Virus genome (UHGV): UHGV-0044850 | Direction: 5' to 3' (one strand) | DNA length: 10,997 nt | Source of the DNA: a virus | Shown here: piece after piece, positions 4,454 through 5,888 of the stretch | Position numbering within the stretch: position 1 is the first letter of the stretch | Layout of the letters: each line of letters begins with the position of its first letter | Position numbers and translations under genes: made by a program | The notes under the pieces: generated by a model | Told to the model about the DNA's origin: nothing | Databases searched by the model: none | What the model saw: only the letters and a program-made list of their open reading frames with translations

Positions 4454-4609
4454 CTATTCATATCCTCATAGATAAAAAATCGCCCTCACACTGGAGGGCA
4501 AAGAAGATTTCCAATAATCAGAACAAGTCGGCTCCTGTTTAGTTACGAGCGACATTGCTCCGTGTATTCACTCGTTGGAATGAATACACAGTGCAGTGTT
4601 TATTCTGTT

Positions 4610-4645
4610 TGAAGTGGTCAACAAAAACTGGCCACCGAGTTAGAG
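4610..4645. repeat. IS911 terminal inverted repeat (end proximal to orfB)
   Basis: TGAAGTGGTCAACAAAAACTGGCCACCGAGTTAGAG pairs imperfectly with the reverse complement of 5824..5859 (TGAAGTGGTTTACTGAATTTGGCCACCTGAACAGAG). Confidence 0.7.
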
Positions 4646-5458
4646 TTTTTTCCAGTATCGATTTTCCGATTCGTTTGGTGGTAACCCACCATTATATTCG
4701 TGCGGTCTTAGTGCGCTGTAATATCCAACGATATAGTCCGTTATTGCGTGAGCTGCATCGCTGAAGCTTACATAGCCCGTCGCCGGCACCCATTCGTTCT
4801 TCAGACTCCTGAAGAAGCGCTCCATTGGGCTGTTATCCCAGCAGTTTCCACGCCGACTCATACTCTGCCTGATCCGGTATCTCCACAGTAACTGCCGGAA
4901 CTGCCTGCTCGTATAATGACTGCCTTGATCGCTGTGGAACATCACCCCGACGGGCTTACCACGGGTTTCCCATGCCATTTCCAGTGCTTTCATGGTAAGC
5001 CTGCTGTCCGGCGAGAACGACATGGCCCAGCCCACTGGTTTTCTTGCGAACAGGTCGAGAACAACGGCGAGGTACGCCCAGCGCTTACCCGTCCAGATAT
5101 AGGTCACATCACCGCACCACACCTGATTTGGCTCGGTCACGGCGAACTGCCGTTCAAGGTAGTTAGGGATAGCAACATGTTCATGACCACCACGTTTATA
5201 CCGGTAAGTCGGCTGCTGACAGCTGACCAGCCCCAGCTCTTTCATGAGTCTGCCAGCAAGCCAGCGCCCCATCTGGTAGCCTCTCTGGGTTGCCATTGTG
5301 GCGATGCTTCTTGCTCCGGCAGAGCCGTGGCTGATGCCATGCAGTTCAAGTACCTGGCTGCGTAATACAGCCCGTCTGCCGTCTGGCTTTTCAGGACGGT
5401 TTTTCCAGTATTTGTAGCTGCTGCGATGGACCCCGAACACATGGCAGAGATTGGCCAC
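4640..5458 (-). CDS. IS911 OrfB (DDE transposase catalytic domain; expressed as OrfAB fusion via -1 frameshift)
   Basis: 272-aa frame in the -1 frame relative to orfA, with the rve/DDE-type core (WCGDVTYIW...[10 protein letters not shown]...[11 protein letters not shown]). The GTG listed at 5458 is probably not the real start; fusion is expected at the A6G site near 5530. Confidence 0.85.
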
Positions 5459-5484
5459 AGGATAACGCGCCCTGAGTTTCCCGA

Positions 5485-5787
5485 TTATCGAGAACTGTTC
5501 AGGGAGTCTGACATCAAGAGCGCGGTAGCCTTTTTTAATATTTCATTTTCCATTTCAATACGTTGTAGCTTTTTCCTGAGCTCACGGATTTCAATTTGTT
5601 CCGGGGTAATAGGGGAGGCTTTTGGTGTTTTTCCCTGCCGCTCATCACGTAATTGTTTCACCCATCGCGTCATTGTGGAAAGGCCGACATCCATAGCGCT
5701 GGCTGCATCTGCCACGGTGTAATTCTGGTCAACGACCAGTTGAGCGGATTCGCGTTTAAACTCTGCGCTGAAATTTCTTTTTTTCAT
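5485..5787 (-). CDS. IS911 OrfA (HTH transposase regulator; N-terminal part of OrfAB)
   Basis: 100-aa frame [103 protein letters not shown] at 5787 with AGGTG RBS. Slippery heptamer A AAA AAG at 5536..5530. Confidence 0.9.
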
Positions 5788-5823
5788 TATGGCACCTGTG
5801 TTGTTCTGAGGTGAGCATATCAC

Positions 5824-5859
5824 CTCTGTTCAGGTGGCCAAATTCAGTAAACCACTTCA
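5824..5859. repeat. IS911 terminal inverted repeat (end proximal to orfA)
   Basis: Reverse complement begins TGAAGTGG and has the shared core TGGCCACC. IS3-family 5'-TG...CA-3' termini. Confidence 0.7.
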
Positions 5860-5888
5860 GTTATTTATGCCAAAAATAAAGGCCACTA

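Follow-up and report, generated by a model that had tools for sequence, protein, structure and literature searches.

The DNA analysed here (the window, 10,997 nt of the virus genome UHGV-0044850) raises a simple question: what is the 1250-bp segment that lies between ral and ea10 in a lambdoid pL operon, how did it get there, and does it harm the expression of the genes that follow it in the direction of transcription? Taken as a whole, the reading that we consider very probable is that of an intact, recently inserted copy of ISEc52 in the ral-ea10 spacer, with little polarity and probably competent for transposition. The element, the kind of site and the mechanism are all already known, and the locus is an ordinary textbook IS insertion in a prophage. 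Positions of the individual features are collected in Table 1.

Both boundaries of the segment were located in the letters themselves (window positions 4400-6100 were read). At the flank/IS boundary at 4610 the sequence passes from TTATTCTGTT to TGAAGTGGTCAACAAAAACTGGCCACC, and at the IS end at 5859 from GGTGGCCAAATTCAGTAAACCACTTCA to GTTATTTATGCC, while a repeat finder detected inverted arms at 4610-4636 and 5833-5859. The two terminal repeats, IRL and IRR, agree at 25 of their 36 terminal positions and have 5'-TG...CA-3' tips, starting TGAAGTGG. A length within the range of about 1.2-1.5 kb, together with imperfect TG...CA inverted repeats, is what defines the IS3 family, as is a direct duplication of 3 bp (in this family sometimes 4 bp), which was checked here against the empty site. 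Every defining trait of an IS3-family element of the IS911 lineage that can be read from a sequence is present in the window element, and we found no evidence contradicting its identification.

A more exact name comes from annotated copies, with the reservation that element names are used here as the PGAP labels on matching copies, under which ISEc52 and IS911 are filed separately. The 1250 bp are 99.9% identical, over 100% of their length, to copies labelled "IS3-like element ISEc52 family transposase". This E. coli element (IS3 family, IS3 group) shares 1249 of 1250 nucleotides with the window copy in Nissle 1917, ATCC 25922 and many others, and its copies have the same length, inverted repeats, ORFs and frameshift site. 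The window copy is set apart by one private base (5451), which is also the sole difference from four other copies, two of them in ATCC 25922, one in AHB22 and one in AR_0058; among the top E. coli matches listed, none reaches 100% and the best stands at 99.9%. IS911 of Shigella dysenteriae likewise encodes threonine at OrfAB position 113, and the Thr113Asn change of the window copy could reflect either a true mutation or an error of sequencing. ISEc52 is a multicopy element: a copy of nearly full length was found in 1800 complete E. coli genomes, and the median number of matching places is 3 among all genomes with at least one match.

The resemblance to IS911, the model IS3-family element of the Chandler and Fayet laboratories, is also close. 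Both elements have about 1250 bp and 36-bp repeats, and nucleotide identity to the S. dysenteriae plasmid copy (PGAP "IS3-like element IS911 family transposase") is 94.2%. IRR is identical in the two, whereas IRL positions 9-11 read TTT in the window element and CAC in IS911; OrfA has 99 of 100 residues in common, a single residue being different. The A AAA AAG heptamer, the AUU-started orfB, the 3-bp duplication and the DD(35)E motif are found in both, and the slippery site with the downstream stem-loop region is nearly the same. IS911 has been described as an element with 36-bp inverted repeats, a 100-aa OrfA and an OrfAB produced by programmed -1 frameshifting (PMC2909936). The organisation of the window element fits this description, and IS911-type is therefore a fair label for it.

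The coding part of the element consists of two consecutive ORFs, with orfB overlapping orfA and lying in the -1 frame relative to it. OrfB matches the Pfam families rve, rve_3 and HTH_21, with rve spanning its full length, and its translation contains the catalytic signature WCGD, HSDQG, a glutamate 35 residues on and a lysine seven residues thereafter, that is, DD(35)E-K. A -1 slip at the heptamer would join the two frames into an OrfAB of 86 + 296 = 382 aa. The motif A_AA.A_AA.G is among the most efficient for frameshifting, and IS911 uses two stimulators, including an upstream SD-like GGAG and a downstream structure (PMC4066793). For the window element, the predicted downstream stem-loop has a fold z-score of only -1.0, a weak prediction if taken alone; its sequence is almost identical to that of IS911, with one U-A pair turned into U-G. 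The upstream SD-like position reads GGAA against the GGAG of IS911, which is the sole departure of the window element from IS911 proper and is common to all the ISEc52 copies that we examined; the 30 nt upstream of the slippery site contain no SD-like motif from the list in PMC4066793.

In related records, PGAP calls the transposase genes "frameshifted" pseudogenes, a label that mirrors the programmed frameshift and not a defect. Given that the ends, the ORFs, the frameshift site and the DDE motif are all intact, the window copy can probably still transpose. Two changes, GGAG to GGAA and Thr113Asn in the N-terminal part of OrfAB, temper this expectation.

Pfam matches describe the surroundings of the element. 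Along the minus strand the order is exo-bet-gam-kil-cIII-ea10, then the IS, then ral-(sieB)-N, the corresponding matches being a YqaJ-type exonuclease, RecT/Bet, Gam, Kil, CIII, DUF2528 (that is, ea10), Ral, SieB and the N peptide. Further to the right come an S24/HTH repressor, a Cro-like HTH protein and CII, and this gene order to the left of a cI-type repressor is that of a lambdoid pL operon. PGAP annotation of 99.7%-identical loci agrees with these gene identities, and in one of them (L003) the homologue of N is named 'transcriptional antitermination N peptide'. An Rfam scan of the window returned the cIII thermometer only (Lambda_thermo, 3967-4025, 88.5 bits); in and around the insertion site it detected no known RNA family.

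Two candidate nut sites complete the picture. Each consists of a boxA-like GCTCTTT, a short hairpin, CTACGT and a boxB-like hairpin, and the boxB stem carries a compensatory change between them (UGGCUGAAAAGCCA in nutL against UCGCUGAAAAGCGA in nutR). An N protein accompanied by paired candidate nut sites points, at the level of sequence, to N antitermination of this operon. Without the IS, the non-coding spacer between ral and ea10 would measure about 183 bp.

The preliminary description of this DNA had recognised most of the above. Its 1250-bp IS3-family element between GTT triplets at 4607-4609 and 5860-5862 is exact in all coordinates, and the intact inverted repeats, two ORFs and A6G frameshift site that it reported were all confirmed from the sequence. 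The same holds for the position in the ea10-ral spacer, for the direction of the IS genes (that of pL transcription) and, through Pfam, for the identities of the flanking pL genes. Three refinements can be added: sieB, placed between ral and N, is encoded on the plus strand, the window copy has the private Thr113Asn change, and ISEc52 is a more exact name than "IS911-type", which the 94.2% identity to IS911 nonetheless supports.

Table 1. Positions of the element, of its parts and of the surrounding operon features in the window, with the basis for each assignment.
Feature	Position	Strand	Basis or remark
Terminator-like hairpin and T-run before cIII	4043-4060	-	consensus scan
ea10 homologue (DUF2528), first gene downstream of the IS	4085..4453	-	PF10800, E = 2e-47
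Terminator-like hairpin and T6, strong, just before ea10, downstream of the IS in the pL direction	4480..4501	-	consensus scan
22-bp imperfect palindrome beside the insertion point	4552..4599		82% complementary; long hairpin in pL-direction RNA
GTT target-site duplication, left copy	4607..4609		single GTT in the empty sites of L001-L004
Complete IS3-family element, ISEc52 (IS911-like)	4610..5859	-	1250 bp; 99.9% identity to PGAP-named ISEc52, and terminal inverted repeats
IRR, 36-bp right inverted repeat	4610..4645	-	tip 4610; outward-facing TTGACC hexamer inside
orfB frame, 299 codons from AUU, catalytic DDE part of OrfAB	4640..5539	-	translation; PF00665 rve, E = 1e-31
Private substitution, Thr113Asn in OrfAB	5451	-	A where compared copies have C; IS position 409
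Predicted branched stem-loop 3' of the slippery site, similar to the IS911 three-way-junction stimulator	5459..5531	-	MFE fold
orfA, 100 aa, HTH and leucine-zipper regulator	5485..5787	-	translation; PF01527 HTH_Tnp_1, E = 6e-14
A AAA AAG -1 programmed frameshift heptamer	5530..5536	-	orfA frame TTA AAA AAG
IRL, 36-bp left inverted repeat	5824..5859	-	tip 5859
GTT target-site duplication, right copy	5860..5862		abuts the element tip at 5859
Terminator-like hairpin and T-run, weak, just after ral, upstream of the IS in the pL direction	5882..5897	-	consensus scan
ral, last gene upstream of the IS	5889..6089	-	PF11058, E = 2e-48
N antiterminator gene, 90 aa	6901..7173	-	PF25694 N_peptide, E = 1.5e-32
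Candidate nutL: boxA-like GCTCTTTAAACAA, hairpin, boxB-like UGGCUGAAAAGCCA	7266..7316	-	layout shared with nutR
Candidate nutR, downstream of cro; boxB-like UCGCUGAAAAGCGA	9953-10000	+	same layout as nutL

How the element came to lie in this spacer was addressed by searching the whole window against 5426 complete E. coli genomes and the GenBank phage collection. The isolated Escherichia phages ev017 and PhiR57_1, together with related prophages, are 99.7% identical to the window outside the IS, and the match spans 9744 bp in these relatives against 10,997 in the window, a difference of 1253 that corresponds to 1250 + 3. In four related prophage loci (L001-L004), a single GTT links the 40 nt on the left of the IS with the 40 nt on its right; the uninterrupted empty site, reconstructed over 400 nt, is present in 762 of the 5426 complete E. 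coli genomes. Of the 129 complete genomes in which 80% or more of the window is covered, none has the exact insertion, and the insertion site with its ral-side flank is occupied in 0 of the 5426. Patterns built on the junction pair had no match in GTDB representative genomes or JGI metagenomes, and the corresponding junction search of IMG/VR returned solely a contig of the type of strain AR_0058, which is treated below.

Given a perfect duplication, a distance of 1 nt to the multicopy consensus and the lack of this insertion in every close relative, we infer a recent event; that none of the collections searched has the insertion would fit an event specific to one lineage. The claim of a relatively recent insertion, already made in the preliminary description, fits these three observations, with the 129 related prophages as the measure of absence. 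The empty site with a single GTT, for which that description had proposed to look in IS-free relatives, is the one found in L001-L004 and in the 762 genomes. Relatives carrying the 1250 bp as native content without a duplication were also sought; none was found, and the duplication is genuine.

A second copy at the same position puts the choice of target in question. A 301-nt query across the left junction was recovered in one piece from only one of the 5426 complete E. coli genomes, that of AR_0058, where ISEc52 occupies this very GTT, has the same orientation as in the window and is flanked by GTT at either end. The AR_0058 prophage is a different lambdoid mosaic, with a RecT-family recombinase and neither ral nor ea10. 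The two sequences share about 130 bp on the IRR side and a diverged stretch of about 27 bp on the IRL side (GTTATTTATGCCAAAAATAAAGGCCAC in the window against GTTGTTAGTGCCAAAAATAAAGGCCGAC in AR_0058), and the AR_0058-type empty site is found at 100% identity in strain EC20. Inheritance of both copies from a single event is unlikely, as the flanks diverge from the fourth base beyond the IS onwards: with native flanks on both sides of each copy, common descent would require that a crossover had taken place inside the 3 bp adjoining the IS. It is simpler to assume that the two copies inserted independently at the same base.

Such a recurrence leads to the hypothesis that the GTT beside the conserved palindrome of the ral-ea10 spacer is a preferred target of ISEc52/IS911-like elements, which we hold as a tentative and somewhat doubtful proposal. 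In its favour, the two apparently independent insertions share base and orientation in unrelated prophage backgrounds, and other junctions fall nearby. A third IS end, belonging to a full-length IS911-like copy in the IMG/VR contig L026, borders on window position 4593, at a distance of 16 bp; this copy has the opposite orientation and a rearranged far side. In strain K56-43-un, a cassette with a gene of 156 aa has been inserted at 4589-4594, with a junction in the same 20 bp. The palindrome itself belongs to a spacer module of about 130 bp that is conserved among lambdoid prophages, including that of AR_0058. However, the events at the same site number only two, and the very common module (about 2240 complete E. 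coli genomes, some 40% of the total) offers many chances for insertion, while survivorship favours harmless intergenic sites.

The wider target survey speaks against the proposal as well. It comprised 23 distinct duplication-bearing IS911/ISEc52 sites, taken from IMG/VR contigs and fetched loci, and gave neither a consensus nor a bias towards foldable DNA. The compositional biases were weak and not convincing (G at -1 in 13 of the 23, A at +5 in 14). A preference for hairpins or terminators as a general rule can be rejected, given that the 83-nt empty sites had a mean MFE percentile of 0.54 relative to random windows of the same locus and that a single site of 23 fell at or below 0.1. Targeting directed by the inverted repeats is a known behaviour of IS911 when OrfA is low. 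The target is no more like the IS ends than shuffled sequence, its best ungapped match to IRL/IRR being 17 of 36 positions against a shuffled mean of 17.1 and a 95th percentile of 19, and this candidate was rejected too. The recurrence at the GTT stays an unexplained, modest observation, to which survivorship in a harmless spacer may contribute. A true hot spot would suggest that an IS regarded as little target-specific follows some cue in its target, structural or protein-bound, that has so far gone unrecognised.

With regard to the phage, the alternative to be weighed is that the IS is strongly polar and cuts the expression of ea10, cIII, kil, gam, bet and exo even in the presence of N. In that case Red recombination, Gam protection and the cIII-dependent control of lysogeny would be impaired, and the insertion would be a step in prophage domestication. 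We consider this quite unlikely, although the setting has features that would suit it. The 1.25 kb added consist mostly of orfB, whose translation requires an infrequent frameshift, and Rho-dependent polarity classically arises in such a setting. Moreover, near-identical prophages hold other IS in the early-left region (two in ATCC 25922, and one in AHB22, in sieB), and the HM670 prophage has another IS3-family element there, a pattern compatible with decay.

Several observations argue against strong polarity. All the genes downstream of the IS are intact. N is full length and the candidate nutL looks intact, and pL transcription, presumably N-antiterminated, should suffer little from the added DNA. 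Terminator-like hairpins native to the operon already stand between N and the genes from ea10 to exo, which would therefore have been N-dependent before the IS arrived. On the pL strand of the IS itself no terminator-like hairpin was detected by our scan, a crude consensus scan that is blind to Rho-dependent sites, and this too points to little polarity. Polymerase modified by N reportedly passes intrinsic and Rho-dependent terminators over many kb, and N is said to relieve the polarity of IS insertions (Adhya, Gottesman and de Crombrugghe 1974). The preliminary description made reduced expression conditional on a lack of N-mediated read-through, which was a suitable caution, and the sequence evidence favours read-through. 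Altogether, strong polarity of the IS appears unlikely, and we would expect little polar effect on ea10-cIII-kil-gam-bet-exo during induction. Rho could act in the roughly 900 nt of poorly translated orfB if N modification were incomplete.

The scan also returned no promoter-like site at the junction between IRR and the flank. A hybrid outward promoter, with the -35 hexamer of IRR (TTGACC) and a -10 in the flank, was considered and rejected, there being no acceptable -10 at 16-18 bp and, according to the scan, no promoter-like site on that strand. Packaging may be affected by the additional 1253 bp if the phage is near head capacity (its relatives have 49.5-50.1 kb).

Classical polar IS insertions are known from the early operons of phage lambda, where the polarity is relieved by N. 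They resemble the window IS in that their operon is N-antiterminated and a nut site precedes them; they differ from it as laboratory-selected mutants with a phenotype, whereas the window insertion is natural, sits in a spacer and has no known phenotype. In a repressed lysogen, pL would be off and the spacer would offer a quiet, non-coding landing place. Because of these two properties, the insertion should be nearly neutral as long as the prophage stays repressed.

The weakest explanation, and in our view an extremely improbable one, is that the segment is an assembly artefact (a collapsed or misplaced IS) or native content of the phage lineage: IS elements often cause misassembly and the exact junction pair is in no other record among the collections searched, but both junctions are clean, the perfect 3-bp duplication, of a triplet that stands once at the empty site of the 762 genomes, would not arise by misassembly, and the empty sites exclude native content.

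IS elements are common in prophages. IS911-like copies are also found in isolated temperate phages, namely Shigella phage Sf6, SfII and Salmonella phage SEN22, each of which, like the window, combines an IS911-type element with a temperate phage genome that is ordinary in other respects. Identity to the window element reaches 99.8% in the SEN22 copy. That of Sf6 is annotated as 'insertion sequence:IS911', and its match overlaps a gene annotated NinG/Rap, unlike the ral-ea10 site described here.

An intact, recent ISEc52 insertion of this kind would follow the known route of its family. In IS911 and other IS3-family elements, OrfAB cuts one strand at an end, which leads first to a figure-of-eight and next to a circle whose ends abut (copy-out). 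Integration of this circle produces a 3-bp duplication (paste-in), and OrfA modulates the reaction. By analogy, an OrfAB made through the -1 frameshift at A AAA AAG would have carried ISEc52 by copy-out-paste-in, via an IRR-IRL circle, into the spacer of about 183 bp between ral and ea10 of a lambdoid prophage, duplicating the GTT.

The insertion can be used as a strain or lineage marker, and it is a natural case for measuring the N-dependent read-through of an IS. If targeting, and not survivorship, lay behind the recurrence at the same GTT, the IS911 group would gain a target preference, the sole potentially new point of this locus.

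The target used by the ISEc52 copy of the window was also hit in a second prophage. In E. coli strain AR_0058, an ISEc52 copy shares its GTT target, orientation and duplication with the window insertion, while the host prophage is of a different lambdoid type from that of the window, with a RecT-family recombinase and without ral or ea10. The empty site of the AR_0058 type is present, at 100% identity, in strain EC20. Taken together, the AR_0058 insertion looks like an independent event at the very base used in the window. An IMG/VR contig (L006), of the AR_0058 prophage type, likewise carries ISEc52 at this GTT, with equal orientation and duplication.

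Other junctions were found close to the palindrome that adjoins the insertion point. In a second IMG/VR contig (L026), at about position 2842, a full-length IS911-like copy, opposite in orientation to the window ISEc52, adjoins window-equivalent 4593. This position lies in the palindrome's right arm, at a distance of 16 bp from the GTT. The other flank of this element is unrelated, and the junction is therefore an IS-associated rearrangement. At the E. coli K56-43-un locus (positions 486-983), a cassette of approximately 500 bp, encoding a 156-aa hypothetical protein and bordered by a 6-bp CAGTGC repeat, occupies window-equivalent 4589-4594, in the same 20-bp zone as the IS insertions near the palindrome. 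This small zone is a mosaic or moron junction as well. Away from the palindrome, a third IMG/VR contig (L072) has an IS911-like end within the terminator-like hairpin that lies upstream of cIII (window-equivalent 4043-4060); since TGAAG occurs in the hairpin and is also the IS tip, the junction is ambiguous.

The prophage lineage of the window collects IS elements. In three prophages whose identity to the window is 99.3-99.7%, IS copies occupy other places of this early region: in ATCC 25922 one ISEc52 lies in the DUF1382 gene and a second in the ral-sieB spacer, sieB of AHB22 is interrupted by ISEc52, and HM670 holds another IS3-family element both in the DUF1382 gene and in a replication gene.

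Further features of the early region are collected in the table. The cIII thermoregulator element of the window is full length. In both candidate nut sites an additional short hairpin separates boxA from boxB, whose stem bears a GAAA(A) loop, and a G-C pair in one of the two boxB stems is C-G in the other, a compensatory change. In related genomes PGAP lists the 60-aa ORF as a hypothetical protein; it gave no match in Pfam and may be spurious. The gene pair sits where lambda has rexA and rexB. One product is a DUF1828 protein of 250 aa; the other, of 185 aa, matches DUF6978 weakly and below threshold. Together they may constitute a module for exclusion or defence that the lysogen expresses.

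Coordinates of features in the window and of the second ISEc52 copy
Feature	Sequence	Position	Strand	Remarks
Lambda cIII thermoregulator RNA element	window	3967-4025	-	88.5 bits (gathering score 50)
60-aa ORF	window	7151-7333	-	overlaps nutL region and start of N
Candidate nutL	window	7266-7316	-	
Two genes	window	7610-8916	-	between N and repressor
Candidate nutR	window	9953-10000	+	
ISEc52 copy	E. coli AR_0058 (NZ_CP021689.1), locus L005	7137-8386		

Within ISEc52 itself, GGAA (window 5548-5551, minus strand; IS position 309-312) stands at the place of the SD-like GGAG of IS911, as it does in all four other ISEc52 copies compared. In IS911 the GGAG stimulates -1 frameshifting and AUU initiation; GGAA would possibly lower OrfAB output relative to IS911. 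At window position 5451 the copy has a private A, where all other copies compared have C; in OrfAB this gives Asn instead of Thr at residue 113, which belongs to the N-terminal part of the transposase. Either a true mutation or an error of sequencing could account for it. In the annotation of ATCC 25922, AHB22 and AR_0058, the transposase of ISEc52 carries the PGAP label of a "frameshifted" pseudogene. This label is an annotation artefact, the frameshift being the programmed one, and it could mislead tallies of intact ISEc52 copies.
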